Shown here piece by piece: positions 6,772-51,384 of a stretch of DNA of 51,384 nt. The notes below the pieces were generated by a model. The model was not told where the DNA came from, did no database searches, and saw nothing but the letters and a program-made list of their open reading frames with translations. The stretch comes from a virus. Lineage: Duplodnaviria; Caudoviricetes. A program made the position numbers and the translations under genes. Where the stretch lies: positions 1 to 51,384 of the IMG/VR virus record IMGVR_UViG_3300036792_000159; one strand, written 5' to 3'. Every line of letters begins with the position of its first letter. Position 1 is the first letter of the stretch.

Positions 6772-7062
6772 TTACCTTCCGGAGTATTCGCGGTTCTTTC
6801 GCAGGGCACCTTCGAGGTTGGCAACTTGCTCACCGAATTCCCCCACGGCGCGCTCGAACGTCTGCGCTGCCTCCAGCTGAACGTTCGCTATCTGTTCCCA
6901 CCGCTCTGCTTCTTTTTCCCACTCAGTAAGACGTTTGCTAGCGTCATGCGTGAACGTGTCGGCCCCTACCCTCTCGTCGAGTGGCTTGCGAGCCTGCTCT
7001 GCTGCGATGTCTTTAGTGGTGTGGCCTTGTTCAGCGGGGGTGCGGGGGTCGGTGCCTTCCAT
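6772..7062 (-). CDS. Coiled-coil hypothetical protein
   Basis: AGGAGG SD; TATACT -10 upstream. Confidence 0.65.
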   Translation of the reverse strand: MEGTDPRTPAEQGHTTKDIAAEQARKPLDERVGADTFTHDASKRLTEWEKEAERWEQIANVQLEAAQTFERAVGEFGEQVANLEGALRKNREYSGR

Positions 7063-7148
7063 GTCCTGCCTCCTGTGGTTAGGTTGTGCATAGGAGGCAA
7101 CAGTATAGCGCCTCTACAGCAAATACCGCAGGCACGTAGAGGCCAGAG

Positions 7149-7171
7149 AAAAGGCGCCCCGAAGGACGCCC
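7149..7171 (-). terminator. Intrinsic terminator
   Basis: GGCGTCC-TTCG-GGGCGCC-TTTT on the - strand. Confidence 0.8.
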
Positions 7172-7196
7172 TTTCCCGCCGACGTGTAGGGGGAGG

Positions 7197-7703
7197 CTAC
7201 TCGTCGTCCTCGTCCTCGTCGTCGTCCTTGGCGCTGGCCTTCATCGCCTTGACGATCGCTTTGGCTTCGGTTTTGTTGAAGGCGTACCGCCCGAGCTCCT
7301 CGTCTTTGGGGAACTTCTTCTTGTTCGCCTTTTTGCGGAGGAACAGACGGACGCTGCGAGCGTCGGTGTCTGCCATCTCTGCGACGTCCTGCGCGGACAG
7401 CTTGCCCTTGGGCATCTCCCGCGGGCCGGTCGGACCCCGTTTTTTCGATTTGGACTTGGTTTTGGATTTGGACTTTTTGCCTTTCCGCTTTTTCGCGGGC
7501 GGCTCGTCCTCCTCCTCGTCCTCGTCCTCCTCCTCTTCGTCGTCGTCCTCCTCGACGTCGTCCTCGTCCTCGTCCTCAGGCTCTTCGTCCTCCTCCTCGT
7601 CGTCCAGGTCGTCGAGGCCCTCAAGCTCCTCCAGCTCCTCCTCTTCGCGCTTCTGCTTCGCGCTCTTTTTGGATTTGCCGCGTTTTTTGGTTTTGGTAGC
7701 CAT
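7197..7703 (-). CDS. Basic/acidic charge-block protein with C-terminal HTH-like domain (alternative in-frame start at 7904)
   Basis: K-rich, long D/E tract, K-rich, then SAQDVAEMADTDARSVRLFLR...GRYAF; SD AAGGAAGG. Confidence 0.75.
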   Translation of the reverse strand: MATKTKKRGKSKKSAKQKREEEELEELEGLDDLDDEEEDEEPEDEDEDDVEEDDDEEEEDEDEEEDEPPAKKRKGKKSKSKTKSKSKKRGPTGPREMPKGKLSAQDVAEMADTDARSVRLFLRKKANKKKFPKDEELGRYAFNKTEAKAIVKAMKASAKDDDEDEDDE

Positions 7704-9340: not shown

Positions 9341-9603
9341 TGGAATCCCAGTCACAGATAGAAACCAGCTGCGCAGGCTCACGTTACTGGGCTCAGGCCC
9401 GACACCACGAAGTGGTGGAGCGTGAGAGACGTCGACGCTATCTCCAGTACGTGTCGATCCCTGGGGTGATAGTAGGTGTAGCAGGGATGGTCCGTTACGT
9501 GACGCTACCCTACCCCGCTGCCCACTGGTACATCGGCCTTGCGTCGGTCATCGTGGTGGCCTTCTTCCTGTGCTTGCCCTCGGGTATGGCACACCGTTCA
9601 TGA
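9337..9603 (+). CDS. Two-TM membrane protein
   Basis: Two hydrophobic segments; coupled overlaps. Confidence 0.55.
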   Translation: MMESQSQIETSCAGSRYWAQARHHEVVERERRRRYLQYVSIPGVIVGVAGMVRYVTLPYPAAHWYIGLASVIVVAFFLCLPSGMAHRS

Positions 9604-9866
9604 TGGCTCTCTACCCGGTAGGAGAACGGGTCATGGCCGTGGAGGCTCCCAGCGAGAAGAAGCTGACCAGCGGGCTTATCCTGCCTGCCTCCTTGGAAGG
9701 GATCAAAGTAGCAATCATCGAAAAAGTAGGTATAGGTCTGGCGCTTGAGGCACTGGATCTCTCTGCGGGTGACGTCGTCTACTACATGGAGGCAAGCGAG
9801 CACAAGATCAAGGACAAATTGATCATCGAGGCTGCATACATCATCGCAATAGAGAGGCTTGACTAG
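9600..9866 (+). CDS. groES: GroES-like co-chaperonin
   Basis: LYPVGERVM...EKKLTSGLILP...VG...AGDVVYY...IIAI pattern. Confidence 0.75.
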   Translation: MMALYPVGERVMAVEAPSEKKLTSGLILPASLEGIKVAIIEKVGIGLALEALDLSAGDVVYYMEASEHKIKDKLIIEAAYIIAIERLD

Positions 9867-10253
9867 ATGGATATTTATGTCGCGGGCAAGACGGACGATT
9901 GGGAACGCGTCCGTCGGGTCCAGGAATCATTGGTCGAGGTTGGTCACATGATTACCTACGACTGGACTGTCAACGTCGAAGATGACGTAGACATGGGGTT
10001 AGAGGCAGACGAGAGAACGCGCCGTGAATGGGCAGACGATGATCAGCTTGGGGTGAAAAGGGCAGATACCGTCATCTTCATGGTTGAATCAGAGGGTCTA
10101 TCAGGAACCCTGATCGAGCTGGGGATGGCTCTGGCCTACGAAAAGAACGTTATCGTCGTAGGGATACCAGAGCGTAACTCCGTCTTCTTCTCCCATGCTC
10201 TGATTACGGAAGTTCCCCACGAGGATGACATCCTCTCGGTTCTCCCCGAGTAG
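9867..10253 (+). CDS. Nucleoside 2-deoxyribosyltransferase / (d)NMP N-glycosidase fold
   Basis: IYVAG, D...ADTVI, SGTLIELGMALA motifs. Confidence 0.75.
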   Translation: MDIYVAGKTDDWERVRRVQESLVEVGHMITYDWTVNVEDDVDMGLEADERTRREWADDDQLGVKRADTVIFMVESEGLSGTLIELGMALAYEKNVIVVGIPERNSVFFSHALITEVPHEDDILSVLPE

Positions 10254-11722
10254 TGGCAAAGTACAAATTTAAGACCAAGCCCTATACCCACCAGATAGAA
10301 GCCCTCAAAGTGCTCCTCCGCAACCGCGGGGGGGCGCTATTTATGGAGATGGGAACGGGTAAGAGCAAGGTCTGTATAGACTGGGTAGCCGCGGAAGCCG
10401 TACGCCTCGACGAGCGCGCTCCTGGCGTACGCTGCCTAATTACGTGCCCCCTGTCTGTAGTGGGGGTCTGGCCAAAAGAGATCGCTAAACATGATCCCTT
10501 TGCCGACAACGACTACATGGGCGCTGAATACCGGATAGTCAATTACGACAAAGTCTGGCGTCCACACGTCTACGACGAACTGGTTGAATGGCTCTGCGAG
10601 GTTCCACCCGAGAAACGTCTGATTATCGCAGACGAGAGCCACAAAATCAAAACCCACTCCAGTCGTAGATCCAAGGCCATGCACAGGCTGGGGCACTACA
10701 CCGAAAAGAAGGTCATCGCGTCGGGTACTCCAGTGACCAACAAGAACACGTTGGATCTGTTCTCGCAGTTCAAGTTCCTCCGTGAATCGATCTTCGGTAC
10801 CCACTTCGACCACTTCAAGCAAAAAGTCGCAGTCTTCAAGTGGAACAGCCCGGTCATACACAGGTTCAAGAACAAACGGTGGGTGCGTAAGAAGACGAAG
10901 CATCTTGTCTACCGCATCAAGAAGGACGAATGCCTCGACCTTCCTCCACGTACCCACGAGATCATCCCTGTGTTCCTGGAGCCACAGGCGCGCAGAGTGT
11001 ACGATCAGCTGGCCGAGCAGGCTATCACCGAATGGGCCGGGATGGAGGTAGAGGCGCCCCACGTTCTTACGCGCATGATGCGCCTGTCTCAGATAACCGG
11101 TGGGTGGCTGAAGGGAGACGAAGGGTACCGGAAGATCAGCAACGTCAAGATCGAGAAGCTCAAGGAGTTGCTCGACGACTTCCAAGACAATGAACGCCAA
11201 AAGCTTGTCATCTATGCCCGGTTCAAAAAAGAGTTGATAGACATCCGAAAGGCGGTGAAAGAGACAAACCACTACTACGTCTTGACCATCCGAGGCAAGA
11301 ACCGTAAGCGCCGAGAGCGCATCTACGAGGCGTTTGAGGCTATCGATCTACCTACTGTGCTGGTTGTGCAGCTTGCTACCGGCTCGGAAGGTCGTAACGA
11401 GCTCGTGGTAGCTCGGGAGGCAGTCTTTTTCTCCCACGATCAAAGCATGGTGCATTTCCACCAAGCACTAGATCGACTCCACAGGCCGGGCCAGTTACAT
11501 AAGGTCACGTATTACCATCTACTAGCAGATCTGACGCAGGATCCTCTAATCCTCCTAGGGTTACGCGAAAACTTCAGGGCAGCTGAGATGGCCTTAAAGT
11601 ACCCCAAGATGCTACATTCTTCAGCAGACACAGCACAAGTACAGGAGAGGCGACATGGCAAGAAAAAAAGGGAAAAAGCAGGGCGGCGGAAAGAAAAAGC
11701 CGAAGTTCGTAGGGGACGGTGA
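10253..11722 (+). CDS. SNF2-family DNA helicase
   Basis: MGTGKS, DESH, SGTP, QALDRLHRPGQ. Confidence 0.9.
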   Translation: MAKYKFKTKPYTHQIEALKVLLRNRGGALFMEMGTGKSKVCIDWVAAEAVRLDERAPGVRCLITCPLSVVGVWPKEIAKHDPFADNDYMGAEYRIVNYDKVWRPHVYDELVEWLCEVPPEKRLIIADESHKIKTHSSRRSKAMHRLGHYTEKKVIASGTPVTNKNTLDLFSQFKFLRESIFGTHFDHFKQKVAVFKWNSPVIHRFKNKRWVRKKTKHLVYRIKKDECLDLPPRTHEIIPVFLEPQARRVYDQLAEQAITEWAGMEVEAPHVLTRMMRLSQITGGWLKGDEGYRKISNVKIEKLKELLDDFQDNERQKLVIYARFKKELIDIRKAVKETNHYYVLTIRGKNRKRRERIYEAFEAIDLPTVLVVQLATGSEGRNELVVAREAVFFSHDQSMVHFHQALDRLHRPGQLHKVTYYHLLADLTQDPLILLGLRENFRAAEMALKYPKMLHSSADTAQVQERRHGKKKREKAGRRKEKAEVRRGR

Positions 11723-11873
11723 GGTTGCACAACTGCGACCACGCCGACGCATGCCGCATGTATCACAGGAGTACGCAGAGCTTGGCCACCCGGACGTCGC
11801 GTTCGAGCTGGTGAAGGGGCTGCGCCCAAGACATCGATTTGCAACCATAGGCACGGAGGTACGCCCAGCATGA
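11655..11873 (+). CDS. Small basic protein
   Basis: GAGG SD; ATGA coupling to the kinase gene. Confidence 0.5.
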   Translation: MARKKGKKQGGGKKKPKFVGDGEVAQLRPRRRMPHVSQEYAELGHPDVAFELVKGLRPRHRFATIGTEVRPA

Positions 11874-12421
11874 TTATCGTAGAGGGTCCCGATGGGGCCG
11901 GCAAGACCACGCTAGTAGACAGTCTCGTAGGGGACTTGATGCTTGACAAGGGGAAGCGAGCTACCAAGGATCGCAACAAGCTGTACGAGGTCACGCGCCA
12001 GGACACCTACACCGCGCTGGCCAAGGGGGTAAAAGGCCACAAGAAACCGCTGATCTGGGACCGTCTGTTCTTCAGCGAGATGGTCTACTCCCCGCTGGTA
12101 GGTAGAGCCTGCGAGTTCTCTGCGGAGGAGCAGGTCTTCGTCAAGAAAATTCTGTCAACCCTAGCGTGTCCGATCATCATGTGCCGTCCCACGTTGGACG
12201 TCGTCGAAAAGAACGTCCTAGAGGCCGACCAGATGGAGGGCGTGAAGGAAAACGTCCGAGGCATCTACAACGCCTACGGTAGTGTGGCAGAAGATATGCC
12301 GTGGCTTATCTGGTATGACTACACCGAAGAGCTGACCGGCAAGGGATCCTTCAAAACCTACGAGGAGATCGTCTTCGCAATCGAGCACTACATGACCCAT
12401 CGGTCAGTCAGGAGCTGGTAA
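11870..12421 (+). CDS. Thymidylate-kinase-like dNMP kinase
   Basis: IIVEGPDGAGKTT; WDRLFFSEMVY. Confidence 0.85.
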   Translation: MIIVEGPDGAGKTTLVDSLVGDLMLDKGKRATKDRNKLYEVTRQDTYTALAKGVKGHKKPLIWDRLFFSEMVYSPLVGRACEFSAEEQVFVKKILSTLACPIIMCRPTLDVVEKNVLEADQMEGVKENVRGIYNAYGSVAEDMPWLIWYDYTEELTGKGSFKTYEEIVFAIEHYMTHRSVRSW

Positions 12422-12425
12422 CACT

Positions 12426-12950
12426 ATGGACTGGCCTACTTTGGTCGAAGAGCGGAATGAGTGGGTGAAGCACAACTTTCCGGTGCCCACCGTCCCCAAT
12501 CCTGGAGAGTCGATCCTCGGTGTCATGGAGGAGGTAGGGGAGCTATCCCACGCCTACCTCAAGTCCGCGCAGAACATCCGCGGTGACAAGGATAAACACG
12601 AAGCCGACGCCAAGGATGCGGTGGCAGATATCACCATCTACCTCCTCGGTGTGATGAATATCTACGGCACTCCTCCCCCCAAGCACTACCTCAGAATCGA
12701 CACGCGGGACACGTTCGAGGCCATGATGATCCTCGGTAGGGCCGTGGGAGAACTCTGCTCCTCCAGTGCAGCGATTCCTGACCTCTACGCAGTAGAGAAA
12801 GTCGTCTGTGCTTGTGAAGAGATCTGCAAGCACTCCGACTGGGACTACGAAGAACTCGTCATCAGAACGTGGGAAGAGGTCAAGAAGCGAGATTGGGCCG
12901 CCTACCCGGAGACCGGACTGCCACCGGAGACGAAGACGGTCAACCTCTAA
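12426..12950 (+). CDS. MazG-like NTP pyrophosphohydrolase
   Basis: EEVGEL...DAVADITIYL; second degenerate AVGEL repeat; WEEVKKRDW. Confidence 0.8.
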   Translation: MDWPTLVEERNEWVKHNFPVPTVPNPGESILGVMEEVGELSHAYLKSAQNIRGDKDKHEADAKDAVADITIYLLGVMNIYGTPPPKHYLRIDTRDTFEAMMILGRAVGELCSSSAAIPDLYAVEKVVCACEEICKHSDWDYEELVIRTWEEVKKRDWAAYPETGLPPETKTVNL

Positions 12951-13759
12951 TGCCAGAGGCAAATCTCCAAGACCTCTGGCACGTTGCCTGTGAGGATATG
13001 CTGTACGCGGAGAGGGGTGACGCCCACATGAACGGCGTCACCTCTTTCCAGTTCGGCAAGCAATTCAAATCAGACTCGATGGATTTCGAGTTCGACCTCG
13101 GCAAGGAGCTATGGCTCACCAAGTCGCGCTTTACGTCTCTCAAGCGCGACTACATCGATCCCACTCGCCTGGCCTACTTCTTCAAGCAGGTGGAGGAACT
13201 TCCACACAGGAGGGTGGCTACTGCACAGATGATCTGTAGGATCAAGGGAGAGCGCAGCCACGGAGACAATTGGGTCAGCTACAAGTGGGGAAACTGCATC
13301 CTCGGGTTCTCGTTCCGTTCTGAACCAGAGCCCGAAATGTGCATGTACGCACGAACGACGCTTATCACTCGAATGGGGGGGATGGATCTTGCACTTGCCT
13401 ACGTCCTGGCGAAGTACGTTGCAGACATTCGCGAGGAAGACGTTACGGACTACAAATTCACATGGTACGTCGGCACCCTCTACCACTCGTCCCTCCATGC
13501 CATGCCCTACTTCTACTCGCATGGACATCACCTCAACATGTACGACTGGGACGCACATGACTACCCTGTGCTGGGAGCAATGCACAGGCAGCTGGAGTAC
13601 AACGATCGGCTAGACAAGGAACAACGTATCATCAAACATGGTACCAGGGAGCGACTACGCAAGCAGCGCCGCAAATTTCAGGCAGACGAAGATGCCCAGA
13701 TCGCGGTGCCCTGCCCTGTCGACTCCCTGGACCTCGAGAATCTGGAGGGCAAGCGATGA
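12950..13759 (+). CDS. Divergent thymidylate-synthase-fold protein
   Basis: GNCILGFSF...MYARTT...GGMD aligns with the TS elements PC...RSxD...N/D; coupled to the TS gene. Confidence 0.55.
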   Translation: MPEANLQDLWHVACEDMLYAERGDAHMNGVTSFQFGKQFKSDSMDFEFDLGKELWLTKSRFTSLKRDYIDPTRLAYFFKQVEELPHRRVATAQMICRIKGERSHGDNWVSYKWGNCILGFSFRSEPEPEMCMYARTTLITRMGGMDLALAYVLAKYVADIREEDVTDYKFTWYVGTLYHSSLHAMPYFYSHGHHLNMYDWDAHDYPVLGAMHRQLEYNDRLDKEQRIIKHGTRERLRKQRRKFQADEDAQIAVPCPVDSLDLENLEGKR

Positions 13760-14562
13760 TGAACTATGGAAATCACCCAATGCCAGGAATCCTGCGTTGG
13801 TTACGAGAGGATCTACTAGCCGCCCCGGAGGCAGACGTCAAAGAAGTCCACTCCCAAGACATCGCAGGAAAACCCGAGTACGTCACGAAGGAGCTGGAGA
13901 ATGTCACCTTCCAGACGTTGCTGCCCAGTGAAGCAGGAGATCTCGCAGCCATCACCGGGGCGAACTTGCCGTGGGCAGAGGATCACTTCTTGGAGCGCGT
14001 CAGTGGCAAACCTTGGAACCCCCCGCCCTCGGCGTCCTGGTGGCCCTACGCACAGAAGGGACACGAAAACCACGTAGACGAGAACGAACAGTTCTCTCAC
14101 ACCTACCCCGAGAGGTTCTGGCCCAAACACGCTGACCTTCCCCGGGGGAGAGAACACCACGGAATCCGTTATCGGTACGGGGACCTGGCAGACGTGGTTT
14201 CCCAGCTGCACAGGAACCCTGCAACGCGCCAGGCATACCTGCCCGTCTGGTTCCCAGAGGACACCGGGGCGCTCCAGGGACAACGCGTACCCTGCACCCT
14301 CGGGTACCACTTTCTCATCCGAGGCAACAGGCTCAACGTCACCTACTTCATCCGGTCGTGCGATTTCATGCGTCACTTCCGTGATGACGTCTATATGGCA
14401 GGGCGTCTCGCGCAGTGGGTATGCAACGAGCTCGTCCAGCGTGAGGGACCCGATGACCTCCCTGTACCACAGGGGTTGGTTGTAGGCCATCTGATCATGC
14501 ACATCGTCTCCATGCATATCTTCAAGGGCGATGTCCCGCTACTCGAAAGGCAGCACTCATGA
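13756..14562 (+). CDS. Thymidylate-synthase family / dCMP hydroxymethylase-like
   Basis: TRQA, VPCTLGYHF, RSCDFMRHFRDD, SMHIF. Confidence 0.85.
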   Translation: MMNYGNHPMPGILRWLREDLLAAPEADVKEVHSQDIAGKPEYVTKELENVTFQTLLPSEAGDLAAITGANLPWAEDHFLERVSGKPWNPPPSASWWPYAQKGHENHVDENEQFSHTYPERFWPKHADLPRGREHHGIRYRYGDLADVVSQLHRNPATRQAYLPVWFPEDTGALQGQRVPCTLGYHFLIRGNRLNVTYFIRSCDFMRHFRDDVYMAGRLAQWVCNELVQREGPDDLPVPQGLVVGHLIMHIVSMHIFKGDVPLLERQHS

Positions 14563-14996
14563 GACCTACCCGCGGAGAAATATTCATGCGCGCTGCGCAT
14601 CTGTTCGCAGAACGCTCTACCTGCGAACGTGCGCACGTAGGAGCAGTCCTCGTGGCAAACAAACGCATCATCGCGCACGGCTACAACGGGGCGCCTCCCG
14701 GTATGCCCCACTGTACCGACGTAGGCTGCGAGGTACTGGACCAGGGCTGCCAGCGCACGGTACACGCAGAGGCAAACGTCATAGCCTACGCGGCCAGGGC
14801 AGGCATCCCTACCGAGGGGTCGTTCATGTTCTGCACCCACTCCCCATGTCGCAAATGCATGGAGCTGGCCTCCTGTGCTGGGGTCGTGGAAATAATCTAC
14901 GACAAGAAATACCGGGCTACCCCATTCGAGCTCGCACCGGCAATGGGAATCATCCTCGTAGGGGCGGAGGGCGTCGATGCCAGAGATGAATTCTAA
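14559..14996 (+). CDS. dCMP deaminase
   Basis: RSTC, GYNG, HAEAN, PCRKC. Confidence 0.92.
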   Translation: MRPTRGEIFMRAAHLFAERSTCERAHVGAVLVANKRIIAHGYNGAPPGMPHCTDVGCEVLDQGCQRTVHAEANVIAYAARAGIPTEGSFMFCTHSPCRKCMELASCAGVVEIIYDKKYRATPFELAPAMGIILVGAEGVDARDEF

Positions 14997-15423
14997 CGCC
15001 GAGGATTCGATGGAGGGCTACGTCGGCCCTGGACGGAAACAGATGCCTACCGACAGAGAGGGGCTCACTCACCGGGTAACCATCGGGGGGATGCAGGGTT
15101 ACATCACGGCAAACCCGCAGGAAGACGGGACGCTCGGGGAGATCTTCATCCACGGGTTCGGCCAGCTCGGTAGCACCAATGCAGGGTGGACCAACGCGTT
15201 TGCGATCATGGTGTCGATCGGCTTGCAGTACGGAGTAGAACTACCGATGCTGGCCCGCAAGTTTGCCCACATGAAATTCGATCCGATGGGTGAAACCGAC
15301 AACCCCGATATCCCACACTGTCAGTCGATACCCGACTACATCTTCAAGTGGATCGCTCTGCACTACGGGGATGAGAAACTCCAGGAAGAACTCCGCAAGA
15401 TCGACGAGGAGTTGGGTAGGTGA
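14977..15423 (+). CDS. Stand-alone class II RNR C-terminal (TSCPD/NrdJb-like) domain
   Basis: GEIFI...GST...SIGLQYGV...KF.P.G.T.NPDIP...SIPDYIF. Confidence 0.75.
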   Translation: MPEMNSNAEDSMEGYVGPGRKQMPTDREGLTHRVTIGGMQGYITANPQEDGTLGEIFIHGFGQLGSTNAGWTNAFAIMVSIGLQYGVELPMLARKFAHMKFDPMGETDNPDIPHCQSIPDYIFKWIALHYGDEKLQEELRKIDEELGR

Positions 15424-17798
15424 GCTTCCAGGACAAGATCAGGAACCCGAGGTGTGAGCTATGCCCGATGTACGAGGAGGCTGGGCACGTCTGCCTGATG
15501 GGGGAGGGGACGCGCAAGGCGGAAATAGTAATCGTCGGGGAGGCGCCAGGAGCACAGGAGGATGAAGAAGGGCGTCCGTTCGTCGGATCCTCGGGGCAAC
15601 TGCTCACCAAGATGTTGAAAGAACACGCAGGCATCGACCGCAAAGACTGCTATATCACAAACGTTGTCAAGTGTCGGCCACCTGACAACGCTACTCCCGG
15701 CAAAAAGGACATCAAGGTTTGTGTGGAAGAGTACCTCGTAAAGGAGCTGGAAAGTGTCAAGCCAAAGTGGGTCCTCACGCTCGGGAACTCAGCTCTACAG
15801 GGAGTTCTTGGAAAATCAGGCATTACTAAGTACCGGGGGAGTCGGGTTAGAGTGGGAGACTTCACTGTTTTCCCCTCGTTCCACCCGGCGGCGGTTCTTA
15901 GGAATCCGCGTTACGAGCACGAGCTTATTGCTGACTTGCGGAAGTTCGGAGAAATGGTTCGGGGTGAAGATAACTCTCCGACTACGAAGATTAAGATCAT
16001 CCGCACTAGATCTCAGCTCAAGTGGTTGGGAAAAACTCTCAGCGCAGCCCCCGGATTCACGTACGACATAGAGACAAATTTCCTTCCTTACTTCGACCCT
16101 GACTTTCGGATAGTCTCTATCGCATTCTCTCTCAAAGCAGGGGAGGCTATCGTCGTCCCTGTCTTCCACGATGAATCTCCGTGGAAGGACCCAGCACAGG
16201 TAGTCAACTGGCTAGGGAAGTATATGAAGATGCCCAAGGCAAAGCACGTCGCACACAACGGCAAGTTCGACGCACAAGGCCTCAAGAATTATGGTGTGGA
16301 GACTACGCAGACGTTCGACACCATGCTCGCTGCGCATATGCTCGACGAGAACAGGTCGAAGGGATTGAAGAATCTCTCACAGATCTACTTGCAGGCGGAC
16401 GCGTATGGTCTAGGGGACGAGCTCAAAGACGCACACGAAATTCCGCTCAAGAAACTGGCTCTCTACAACGGACGTGATACCGACTACACGCTCCGGCTCT
16501 ACGAGAAAATGAAGAAAGAACTCACCGAAGAGCCGAGGGTTGCTCGGGTATTTTCACGTCTGATGATGCCAGCATCCAACCACATCGTCAACGTAGAGAG
16601 ACGCGGTGTGCAGATCGACAAAAATCGTTGGGTAGAGCGCAGCCAGATAGTCGTAAATAATGTGAAGAAGATCGAAGCGGCCATGATGCCCTACGTTCCC
16701 AAGCACATGCGCGCTGACATGAACTTCAACTCCCACCCTAAAGTGGCCAAGTGGCTCTTCGAGGAATGTGGGTACGAGGTACTCGAAGAGACCGAGAAAG
16801 GCGCTCCGTCGTCGAAAGAGTCCGTCCTACTACAGATGCAGGACTACAGCCGAGAGGCAGCGATACTTCTCAAACATCGTAAATGGTACAAGTACATGAG
16901 CACGTACTTCAAGCCGTGGATAGAGCGCTCCGACAGCAACCTCAAGATCCATCCCCAATACAAACTGTATGGCACTGTTACTGGGCGCCTCTCCTGTGTT
17001 GAACCCAACTTGCAACAGGTACCTAGAGAGCCCTTCGTCCGTAGCGTCCTCGGCGCCTCCCCAGGCCATGTGTGGGTAGAGGCAGACTACTCACAGGCAG
17101 AGCTCAGGATCGCGGCAATGCTGGCAAACGAGAAGCGCATGCTACGGATGTTCCAAGCCGGCGAAGACATCCATCTCAACACTGCGGCAGAAGTAACCGG
17201 CAAATCGAAAGGCTCGATCGAGAAGGAGGAGCGGAAGAAAGCCAAGGCGGTGAACTTCGGGTTCCTTTACGGCATGATGCCTAAAAAATTCGTCACGTAT
17301 GCGCGTGACAACTACGGAGTAGTGGTAACTCTTGCAGAGGCTACGAGGGTCCGTGAAAGGTTCTTTGCTGCCTACCCTGCCTTGCACCCCTGGCACGAGC
17401 GCCAGAAGCGTCTAGCGCACCGCTACAAGCGCGTAAGCAGCCCCATAGGCAGGGTAAGGCACCTGCCCGATATCGATAGCCACGTAGATGGCATTCGGAT
17501 GGACGCAGAGCGCCAGGCGATCAACAGTCCTGTACAATCCCTGGCATCGGACTTCACGCTCCTGGCGATGATCCTGCTGGAGGAACAAGGCATCCCTGTG
17601 GTGGGTCTTATCCACGATGCTCTGGCCTTCGATATCCCAGAAGACAAACTTGAGTGGGCACTGCCTATCATCAAACACACGATGGAAAACCTGCCGCTCA
17701 AGACGCTGTTCTACTTTGAAGTAACGGTACCTATCGTGGTAGATGTAAAGATCGGCTCTCATTGGAGCGACCCAGAGTCTAAGGAGTGGAGCGGATGA
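15420..17798 (+). CDS. polA: Family-4 uracil-DNA glycosylase fused to 3'-5' exonuclease and family A DNA polymerase
   Basis: CxxC, GEAPG, KCRPP, HPAA; DIET, HNGKFD; TGRLS, DYSQAELR, KAVNFGFLYG, HDA. Confidence 0.93.
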   Translation: MSFQDKIRNPRCELCPMYEEAGHVCLMGEGTRKAEIVIVGEAPGAQEDEEGRPFVGSSGQLLTKMLKEHAGIDRKDCYITNVVKCRPPDNATPGKKDIKVCVEEYLVKELESVKPKWVLTLGNSALQGVLGKSGITKYRGSRVRVGDFTVFPSFHPAAVLRNPRYEHELIADLRKFGEMVRGEDNSPTTKIKIIRTRSQLKWLGKTLSAAPGFTYDIETNFLPYFDPDFRIVSIAFSLKAGEAIVVPVFHDESPWKDPAQVVNWLGKYMKMPKAKHVAHNGKFDAQGLKNYGVETTQTFDTMLAAHMLDENRSKGLKNLSQIYLQADAYGLGDELKDAHEIPLKKLALYNGRDTDYTLRLYEKMKKELTEEPRVARVFSRLMMPASNHIVNVERRGVQIDKNRWVERSQIVVNNVKKIEAAMMPYVPKHMRADMNFNSHPKVAKWLFEECGYEVLEETEKGAPSSKESVLLQMQDYSREAAILLKHRKWYKYMSTYFKPWIERSDSNLKIHPQYKLYGTVTGRLSCVEPNLQQVPREPFVRSVLGASPGHVWVEADYSQAELRIAAMLANEKRMLRMFQAGEDIHLNTAAEVTGKSKGSIEKEERKKAKAVNFGFLYGMMPKKFVTYARDNYGVVVTLAEATRVRERFFAAYPALHPWHERQKRLAHRYKRVSSPIGRVRHLPDIDSHVDGIRMDAERQAINSPVQSLASDFTLLAMILLEEQGIPVVGLIHDALAFDIPEDKLEWALPIIKHTMENLPLKTLFYFEVTVPIVVDVKIGSHWSDPESKEWSG

Positions 17799-50447: not shown

Positions 50448-51384
50448 TTGTCTCTATCTATCTCCGCAGGATTTCTCACGCGCATCTGGGATTCACAACC
50501 ACAGACAGGGGTGAAGTTCCTCTCCTACTTCGACGCTGAGCGGGAGTGGCAGGACAAAGCTTATCGCAAGCCACCGAAGGAACTACCTCACGATTCACTG
50601 GACGTCTACTTCGCACCGAATGTCTTCGACGACACAGTACGCCGAAAGCCCAACGCATTACCGGGAGTGTGGCTCTATGCAGACCTTGACGAGGTTGATC
50701 CTCTATCTCTTACTGATCTTAGACCTACTGTCGCCTGGACCACCTCTAAACTTCGCTATCAATGCTTGTGGCATCTTAGTCGCGCTCTACCTCCTGCGAA
50801 ACTGGCACGTCTCAATCAGCTCACCACATATTACACGAAGGCGGATAAAGGTGGATGGGGACTGACCAAGGTACTGCGCGTACCAGGCTCCATCTCAACC
50901 AAGCACGGATACAACTTCGCAGTCAAACTTCTATGGGACGACGGCCCCACCTATTCACCGAAGGAGGTACTGGATGTCGTCAAAGTCGCTCGATCAGGAA
51001 CTCCGAGAGTTGACACCAAGGCAACGGAAAGCCTACCTAAGCTACCTAAGATCACTGCATCGCGCATTATACGGCGACGTAAACCGAACGCGAAAGCGAG
51101 GAAGCTCTACAAAGCCAAAGTCGCAAGAGGAGATCGAAGCGCACGGCTCTGGGAACTAGAGTGCCTGCTACTGAAGGCAGGCTGTACGCCAGAGGAGACG
51201 CTGATAGTCGTACGCAAGACGATCTGGAACAAGTACGCAGGACAAGACAGAGAGGTCTCACAACTATGGACAGAGATACACAAGGCGGCGGCAAGCCTAC
51301 CCGCAAAGTCCACCCAAGCCAAAGGAAAGGCTACCAAGGGAAAGGCGCGAAAATCATCTCGCAAAAACACGTCGGGATCGGCCT
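50448..51384 (+). CDS. 5' part of RepB-like primase-helicase (about 704 aa in total, continuing to 1305)
   Basis: TTG with AGGAAGG SD; DVYFAP, LYADLD, TS..RYQCLW, VLRVPGS motifs; open to the window end. Confidence 0.85.
   Translation, partial: MSLSISAGFLTRIWDSQPQTGVKFLSYFDAEREWQDKAYRKPPKELPHDSLDVYFAPNVFDDTVRRKPNALPGVWLYADLDEVDPLSLTDLRPTVAWTTSKLRYQCLWHLSRALPPAKLARLNQLTTYYTKADKGGWGLTKVLRVPGSISTKHGYNFAVKLLWDDGPTYSPKEVLDVVKVARSGTPRVDTKATESLPKLPKITASRIIRRRKPNAKARKLYKAKVARGDRSARLWELECLLLKAGCTPEETLIVVRKTIWNKYAGQDREVSQLWTEIHKAAASLPAKSTQAKGKATKGKARKSSRKNTSGSA
51258..51384. repeat. Terminal overlap copy 2
   Basis: Identical to 1-127. Confidence 0.97.

Follow-up and report, generated by a model that had tools for sequence, protein, structure and literature searches.

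The known way into modified cytosines in phage DNA starts with thymidylate synthase (TS) homologues that carry Asp at the position of Asn177 in E. coli ThyA. We analysed one stretch of DNA, IMG/VR virus record IMGVR_UViG_3300036792_000159 (51,384 bp, called the window below), a soil-metagenome sequence that makes up a nearly complete siphophage genome (~51 kb). Its plus-strand genes from 11870 to 14996 form a conserved pre-replicative pyrimidine-nucleotide module adjoining the phage's own DNA polymerase gene, and two of them are the main subject here: TS-B (13756–14562), a divergent TS-family enzyme with such an Asp, and TSL-A (12950–13759), a cryptic protein predicted to have the TS fold as well. 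We lean towards the reading that cytosine is replaced pre-replicatively in the virion DNA of this phage by a C5-modified cytosine. The logic of pre-replicative cytosine replacement is known; new is the TS-B clade combined with the cryptic TSL-A, that is, a large TS clade (312 IMG/VR loci) whose active-site signature appears to lie outside the characterised classes, and which travels with a hidden second TS-fold protein missed by sequence methods. Several phages with the module are in culture and easy to handle (Muddy, Zuko, Huwbert and GTE2-type Gordonia phages), so the question is directly testable.

The Xp12-type pathway consists of a deoxycytidine monophosphate (dCMP) C5-methyltransferase and a deaminase selective for 5-methylcytosine (5mC), and cytosine is fully replaced by 5mC. 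Phage T4 has a TS homologue (gp42, the dCMP hydroxymethylase), a deoxynucleoside monophosphate (dNMP) kinase (gp1), an all-alpha nucleoside triphosphate (NTP) pyrophosphatase (the dCTPase gp56) and a dCMP deaminase (Cd). Flavin-dependent 5-hydroxy-dCMP synthases (RB69 gp48, DLP3 gp80 and HY126 AfhB; structures 9iqu and 9iqc) also use a TS fold acting on dCMP. MilA, a cytosine-specific TS-fold enzyme with Asp at N177, works with MilB in an antibiotic pathway on ribonucleotides. MilB and DNPH1 prefer hydroxymethyl-pyrimidine nucleotides.

Diagnostic positions for these enzymes have been published in two papers. In the MetaGPA metavirome study, ThyA positions 177 and 147 were the ones most associated with modified-cytosine contigs (PMC8670742). 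According to a 2026 NAR paper (PMC13326640), N177D marks dCMP as substrate, a hydrophobic residue at L143 goes with a methyl product and an acidic one with a hydroxymethyl product, and D169N marks the flavin-dependent 5-hydroxy-dCMP synthases. The L143 rule is not absolute: in our MAFFT alignment the Xp12-like enzyme of phage Xoo-sp2 has Asn at 143.

Gene neighbourhoods have been surveyed in a preprint (bioRxiv 10.1101/2024.12.05.627091). Deaminase genes lying ≤3 kb from a TS gene numbered 104/149 on restriction-resistant C5-modified contigs against 17/277 on unmodified ones, and PRA-PH, PolA and the exonuclease of PolA were the other top co-localised domains of deaminase neighbourhoods. Of the TS homologues tested there, 5/7 made 5-methyl-dCMP (5mdCMP), and one linked deaminase converts 5-methyl-dCTP (5mdCTP) to dTTP.

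TS-B and the characterised enzymes of its fold

TS-B (268 amino acids; in the database its copy begins with Met9, at 13780) matches PF00303 with E 5.8e-7 and 29.4 bits (cut-off 24.3) over residues 139–223 only, which is the central sheet, and phrog_160 with E 2e-31. Identity to ThyA is ~19% (MAFFT). The AlphaFold2 model (mean pLDDT 88.8) nevertheless has the TS fold over its full length: a structural search with VIA gave Z scores of 17–18 and root-mean-square deviations (rmsd) of 2.7–3.4 Å over 201–221 aligned residues in the range 6–268, with TS, MilA and AfhB chains tied as neighbours. A database search found 4,633 relatives at E≤1e-5, an upper bound for the clade that may include more distant TS homologues.

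Codon 14386–14388 of the window is GAC and encodes Asp211, as the initial annotation of this DNA (made from the letters alone) had read. It lies inside RSCDFMRHFRDDV; bases 14341–14400, in the frame of the open reading frame (ORF) 13756–14562, read T-Y-F-I-R-S-C-D-F-M-R-H-F-R-D-D-V-Y-M-A. In a MAFFT alignment of 13 sequences that include ThyA, T4 gp42 and the Xoo-sp2 enzyme, Asp211 stands opposite Asn177 of E. coli ThyA. This column also holds Asp in T4 gp42 (RSNDVVFGFRND) and in the Xoo-sp2 enzyme, and Asn in E. coli ThyA and in the canonical ThyA of phage Huwbert (gp68); the ThyA and gp42 motifs that the annotation had quoted, with Asn and Asp respectively, agree with the sequences we fetched. 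The alignment is imperfect, since the Asn of the ViI enzyme stands one column off. The best PDB sequence match to TS-B is the N229D mutant of L. casei TS (1njc), with Asp aligned to Asp. Asp211 is invariant in 120/120 aligned homologues and in 85/85 copies from the fetched loci; the Asn177 of canonical, deoxyuridine monophosphate (dUMP)-specific ThyA was found in none of them.

The catalytic Cys180 is encoded at 14293–14295, and Cys180, Arg177, Arg200, Ser201, Asp203, Asp211 and His254 are invariant in 120/120 homologues. ThyA Cys146, Arg166, Ser167, Asp169 and His207 are invariant columns of the 13-sequence alignment, TS-B included. Asp203, at ThyA position 169, is Asp in 70 and Glu in two of 72 locus copies, and Asp in 13/13 others. 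ThyA position 147 is Thr181 in TS-B. A family-specific insert of ~50 residues carries further invariant residues (E80, R81, H115, Y117, E119, R120 and W122). Because the ThyA E58 and Y94 columns are not conserved, the cofactor site of TS-B may differ from that of ThyA, and E80, Y117 and E119 of the insert could substitute for Glu58 and Tyr94.

Among characterised types the Xp12 type has the best tblastn identity to TS-B (34%, residues 132–231). Xoo-sp2 and the window each have a TS homologue whose N177 position is Asp, followed directly by a dCMP-family deaminase gene. They also share a pre-replicative logic of kinase and deoxynucleoside triphosphate (dNTP) clearance, and the loop EDxxGxxxGQR(x)VPC before the catalytic Cys. 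The two enzymes differ in identity to ThyA (~19% for TS-B, 32% for Xoo-sp2), at the L143 position (Arg in TS-B, Asn in Xoo-sp2) and in the insert, which belongs to the TS-B family. Xoo-sp2 also has adjacent genes for dihydrofolate reductase (DHFR) and a HAD hydrolase, neither of which adjoins TS-B, and the annotation of the 3.3 kb around its enzyme lists no further TS-like gene (hypothetical genes there were not folded).

T4 gp42 resembles TS-B in having Asp at N177 and, where ThyA has H147, a Thr (MCT in gp42, PCT in TS-B), and T4 has counterparts of the kinase, pyrophosphatase and deaminase of the module. At the L143 position, however, gp42 has Asp and TS-B an invariant Arg, so that the acidic residue of T4-type hydroxymethylases is missing. 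No glucosyltransferase was found among the ORFs scanned in the window, the genes are clustered here but scattered in T4, and T4 is without a TSL-A partner.

The flavin-dependent synthases tie for the top place among the structural neighbours of TS-B (Z 17.8), and one of them, 9iqc, is the top neighbour of the TSL-A model. The Asn at ThyA 169 that marks this type in PMC13326640 is found in neither protein: TS-B has Asp203, and TSL-A and its relatives have Tyr, Phe, Met or Leu. MilA is likewise a strong structural neighbour of both. As far as residues can tell, the TS-B signature (Asp at 177, Arg at 143, Asp at 169) fits none of the characterised methyl, hydroxymethyl and hydroxyl classes.

TSL-A and its pairing with TS-B

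The gene directly upstream of TS-B had been overlooked in the initial annotation. It encodes TSL-A (269 amino acids), a member of phrog_13667 (function unknown); its ATG (12950) overlaps the stop codon of the preceding MazG-like gene, and its stop overlaps the TS-B start (13756–13759). A Pfam scan of TSL-A gave no match, and a PDB profile search gave chance-level matches only. Untrimmed hhalign comparison of TSL-A with TS-B returned a probability of 99.2%, which we rejected as a sign of homology because unrelated controls (kinase, PD-(D/E)XK nuclease and AAA_24) returned 99.2–99.4%. With alignments trimmed to reference columns the probability was <1%, level with six unrelated controls. We therefore claim no homology at the sequence level.

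The AlphaFold2 model of TSL-A has a mean pLDDT of 89.4 (from an alignment of 22 relatives). In an unbiased VIA search of 48,161 representative PDB chains, seven chains reached Z≥5 and all are of the TS family (Z 9.0–13.7); the next chain scored 3.7. The seven are 9iqc, a flavin dCMP monooxygenase (13.7; rmsd 3.3 Å over 182 aligned residues), MilA (12.2), two ThyA chains (10.1 and 9.8), T4 dCMP hydroxymethylase (9.8), and a bifunctional DHFR-TS and a bacterial TS (9.1 and 9.0). Foldseek agreed, with 15/15 matches at E≤1e-3 in the TS family.

A full-library profile search put the TSL-A family at 284 cluster representatives. We compared 150 full-length relatives: 149 keep Cys116, all 150 Arg135, 144 Asp146 (the other six have Glu), 144 Arg60, 148 Tyr68 and 148 Trp172. 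The candidate catalytic codons are 13295–13297 (Cys116), 13352–13354 (Arg135) and 13385–13387 (Asp146). The Cys-to-Arg spacing is 19 residues (20 in ThyA) and the Arg-to-Asp spacing is 11 (11 in ThyA), and the three residues stand on the same strand-strand-helix elements in the TSL-A and TS-B models. From this spacing and secondary structure we infer that Cys116, Arg135 and Asp146 are the equivalents of ThyA 146, 166 and 177. The equivalent of ThyA D169 is Tyr in 94 of the 150 relatives, Phe in 11, Met in 10, Leu in eight and other residues in the remainder. TSL-A thus looks like a second TS-fold enzyme, with a putative active site that keeps the nucleophilic Cys, the phosphate-binding Args and the acidic base-specifying residue. 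It, too, would most likely act at C5 of a cytosine mononucleotide, whether on what TS-B makes or in parallel with it.

Synteny was counted in the best 80 of 312 confirmed IMG/VR TS-B loci. Since the loci share ancestry, the counts speak for a stable module and do not stand for independent events. TSL-A lies upstream in 69/80 (one of them a weak match at a contig edge); of the 11 misses one has no upstream sequence, which leaves 10/80 without detectable TSL-A. Conversely, TSL-A loci in IMG/VR have TS-B directly downstream in 20/20. Two of the ten loci (L081 and L083) have an upstream ORF of 269–292 amino acids that is weakly TSL-A-like. These two ORFs, gp42 of Serratia phage Tlacuache and gene 770 of Brevundimonas phage Polewnik gave hhalign probabilities of 21–83%; all four are possibly divergent TSL-A forms and were not counted as members. 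We conclude that TSL-A is an obligate companion of TS-B in the module. A literature search found no paper on paired TS homologues.

It is doubtful, though far from absurd, that TSL-A is a degenerate TS paralogue without catalysis of its own, acting as scaffold, regulator or heterodimer partner while TS-B alone does the chemistry. TS enzymes are obligate dimers, and the strict pairing of the two genes, their translational coupling through the stop/start overlap and the loss of the D169 equivalent would all suit such a partner. The pattern of conservation speaks the other way: Cys in 149/150, Arg135 in 150/150, Asp or Glu at 146 in 150/150 and Arg60 in 144/150 are kept down to ~30% identity, which one would expect for an active site but not for a scaffold. 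Prediction of a TS-B + TSL-A complex gave an ipSAE of 0.00 in both runs, which, without control pairs, is evidence neither way.

The closest relative of TSL-A, ~95% identical, is at 97–929 of IMG/VR locus L010. It has a frame change just after the catalytic-Cys motif WGNCILGFS, and the remainder is encoded by a second ORF in a different frame. Either the assembly is wrong at this point or the copy is broken.

The neighbours of TS-B are also stable. The 80 loci have a deaminase gene directly after TS-B in 70, a kinase gene in 68, PolA in 67 and SNF2 in 65. We scanned 74 ORFs between kinase and TSL-A from 63 loci (with the window's own MazG-like gene as an extra first row): 33 match dUTPase_2 and five PRA-PH, both of them families of all-alpha NTP pyrophosphatases. 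A further six match DPBB_1, the 'lytic transglycolase' double-psi beta-barrel (best E 1.2e-12), which is unexpected in a nucleotide-metabolism module.

The same gene order is found in Streptomyces phage Zuko, Mycobacterium phage Muddy (gp49–gp44, with gp45 the deaminase) and Microbacterium phage Huwbert. Tlacuache and Polewnik have pyrophosphatase and TS-B genes upstream of a polymerase gene (annotated in Polewnik only), together with the weakly TSL-A-like gene and no deaminase; a gene further upstream is annotated as P-loop NTPase in Polewnik and has no Pfam match in either phage. Huwbert carries, directly after its TS-B homologue gp67, the canonical ThyA gp68 (6786–7589 of locus L003), which is 65% identical to E. 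coli ThyA and has Asn177; both proteins are annotated 'thymidylate synthase'.

Proposed pathway and alternatives

Replacement of cytosine by a C5-modified cytosine is suggested by the combination of an Asp177 TS homologue with a dNMP kinase, an all-alpha pyrophosphatase and a deaminase beside a polymerase gene, and by the preprint data. The tightly linked deaminase and the loop motif common to TS-B and the Xp12-type enzyme make 5-methyl-dCMP the likeliest product and 5mC the likeliest base; 5-hydroxymethylcytosine or something new is possible. The initial annotation had proposed a cytosine-modification pathway of NDT-fold glycosidase, kinase, MazG, TS-like enzyme and deaminase making a 5-substituted dCMP (hydroxymethyl, methyl or other). 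It is supported in part: sequence speaks for its cytosine side, with the invariant cytosine-type Asp, Thr at 147 and the kinase, pyrophosphatase and deaminase neighbours; its NDT-fold member drops out, it passed over gene 12950–13759, and methyl and hydroxymethyl products are not told apart by a 143 position that is invariantly Arg.

In the proposed pathway Cys180 of TS-B would attack C6 of dCMP, and a one-carbon group would be added at C5. A P-loop, thymidylate-kinase-like dNMP kinase (11870–12421) would carry the modified dNMP towards the triphosphate. It matches phrog_761 'thymidylate kinase' (E 2.3e-11) and scores 22.2 bits against Pfam Thymidylate_kin, under the cut-off of 27, with PDB matches that span the P-loop only; its substrate would be modified dCMP and/or deoxythymidine monophosphate (dTMP). 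The putative MazG-like all-alpha NTP pyrophosphatase (12426–12950; phrog_715 E 2e-5, without Pfam match) aligns weakly with the MazG-like PDB entry 2q73 over the EEVGEL motif (E 0.71) and would clear competing dCTP and/or dUTP. The dCMP-type zinc deaminase (14559–14996, 145 amino acids) matches PF00383 (E 1.4e-20) and, in the PDB, 2hvv (E 1e-29) and 4p9c (E 6e-25); its HAE and PCxxC motifs line up in these matches. Candidate substrates are dCMP and 5-modified dCMP or dCTP; by analogy with Xp12-type phages the enzyme would turn some of the cytosine nucleotides, whether canonical or 5-modified, to the thymine/uracil series and so supply dTTP. The phage PolA would then presumably incorporate the modified dCTP, giving virion DNA with C5-modified cytosine.

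A bolder version, which we regard as improbable at present, makes TS-B and TSL-A a two-enzyme cascade on free nucleotides yielding an undescribed cytosine derivative in DNA. One enzyme would put a one-carbon group on dCMP, and the other would re-activate C5 through its own Cys or act on the same carbon in parallel. If true, a large group of siphophages from soil and sewage, the therapeutic mycobacteriophage Muddy among them, would carry an undescribed base in their DNA.

Several observations weigh against modified cytosine in these phages. A deaminase, a TS, a thymidylate kinase and a dUTPase-type pyrophosphatase are also the textbook dTTP-supply module. Arg177 of TS-B, invariant in 120/120 at the ThyA L143 position, fits no characterised product class, and the ThyA E58 and Y94 columns hold Asn70 and a variable residue in TS-B, in a region where the alignment is unreliable (19% identity). 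The ORFs scanned include neither a DHFR nor a glycosyltransferase or any further tailoring enzyme. The Pfam domains of the module match those enriched in the preprint, but the available part of that text does not establish that TS-B-type contigs are in its set, and 7/90 deaminases in its screen acted on 5-hydroxymethyldeoxycytidine (bioRxiv 10.1101/2024.12.05.627091). Finally, a literature search gave no report of modified DNA in Muddy, in GTE2-, Zuko- or Huwbert-type phages or in other phages with the module. The part of the Brevundimonas phage paper available to us gives EcoRI patterns for all its isolates and reports no modification, and a Microbacterium phage paper and a mycobacteriophage structural-annotation paper are silent on DNA modification.

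The strongest alternative built on these points is that the module supplies dTTP and the DNA is canonical. Deaminase, TS-B, kinase and pyrophosphatase would then only raise the dTTP pool, by the classical route dCMP to dUMP to dTMP or by a bypass from dCMP through 5mdCMP to dTMP. This could help a phage of ~56% GC (53–60% in the window) in a presumably higher-GC host; the named relatives infect actinobacteria. The family matches, like the public annotations of Zuko, Muddy and Huwbert, add up to a full thymidylate pathway, 70/80 loci have the deaminase, and these phages are much studied without a report of modified DNA that we could find. Even so we hold a pure supply role to be unlikely. Asp at N177 is invariant, and every characterised dUMP-specific enzyme in our alignment has Asn; Asp at 177 with a residue other than His at 147 is the pattern at the two positions most associated with modified-cytosine contigs, according to PMC8670742. 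Tlacuache and Polewnik are without the deaminase, so the bypass from 5mdCMP to dTMP would fail there. In Huwbert, at least, TS-B is not the sole route to dTMP because canonical ThyA stands beside it; canonical ThyA was found within 7 kb in 0/80 loci, so this argument rests on one phage lineage and TS-B may elsewhere be the sole phage TS. A supply role would also leave the conserved, apparently catalytic TSL-A without a task.

A pathway of the SPO1, ViI or M6 type, leading to hypermodified thymidine or 5-hydroxymethyl-dUMP, in which the deaminase directly downstream would feed dUMP to TS-B for hydroxymethylation, is very improbable: TS-B does match phrog_160 and finds ViI-type phage TS homologues weakly by tblastn, and a kinase and a pyrophosphatase lie beside the ViI enzyme too, but Asp211 never varies, TS-B is ~20% identical to the ViI enzyme (MAFFT; 36% over a 67-residue tblastn stretch), the ORFs scanned held no recognisable 5-hydroxymethyl-dU DNA kinase or other post-replicative tailoring gene, and the one-column offset of the ViI Asn, an imperfection of the alignment, puts no Asn in TS-B.

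If virion DNA is indeed modified at cytosine, this bears on restriction evasion and host range and on the engineering and sequencing of therapeutic actinophages, and the module would be a possible source of new nucleotide-modifying enzymes.

Other genes of the window

On the plus strand from 9,570 to 17,798 the gene order is Cpn10-like, NDT-like, SNF2, kinase, MazG-like, TSL-A, TS-B, deaminase, TSCPD and UDG-exonuclease-PolA. From kinase through PolA neighbouring genes overlap or leave gaps of a few bases, which suggests that they form one operon. All the genes named in the initial annotation are present, each with a Pfam and/or phrog match. It had recognised no glycosyltransferase, and our scan agrees: neither a glycosyltransferase nor a DNA methyltransferase is among the ORFs scanned, which do not cover all small ORFs.

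The NDT-like protein (9867–10253, 128 amino acids) matches PF05014 (E 5.4e-8, 33.4 bits, cut-off 28.8) and so recalls BlsM, MilB and DNPH1. It aligns weakly with BlsM (blasticidin M, 5vto; E 0.43) over a Glu-bearing stretch, where its Glu84 meets the Glu in G-T-x-x-E-x-G; Glu84 is the putative nucleophile. The gene occurs in 2/80 related TS-B loci and is therefore a lineage-specific accessory outside the conserved core. It is absent at the corresponding place in Zuko, Huwbert and Muddy. In the window it is split from the module by the gene of an SNF2-family helicase (10253–11722; PF00176 E 1e-21, phrog_62 E 3e-94), the left neighbour of the module between NDT-like gene and kinase. Directly upstream of the NDT-like gene, 9570–9866 encodes a GroES/Cpn10-like protein of 98 amino acids (PF00166 E 1.7e-5).

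To the right of the deaminase, 14977–15423 encodes an accessory TSCPD-domain protein (148 amino acids; PF12637 E 7.7e-12), also found in 2/80 loci. It stands alone between deaminase and PolA and weakly matches the C-terminus of the ribonucleotide reductase large subunit (phrog_84). The DNA polymerase I (15420–17798) matches PF00476 (E 3e-81) and has N-terminal UDG-superfamily (PF03167, E 8e-35, residues 28–172) and 3′-5′ exonuclease (PF01612, E 3e-22) domains. The UDG-superfamily domain lies ahead of the exonuclease and polymerase domains.

The minus strand carries terminase, portal, protease and major head protein genes and a 2,138-amino-acid ORF at the tape-measure position; with the replication block on the plus strand, this makes the genome one of siphophage type. 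When 24 kb of the window were compared with phage genomes by megablast, the sole match was a 55-bp PolA stretch in Gordonia phages. Plus-strand ORFs run off the sequence at both ends: 1–1305 encodes an AAA_25/DnaB-like ATPase, and 50448–51383 weakly matches a RepB-like primase, under the Pfam cut-off (E 8e-4). The two ends would fit a circular or circularly permuted assembly that was opened within a primase-helicase gene.

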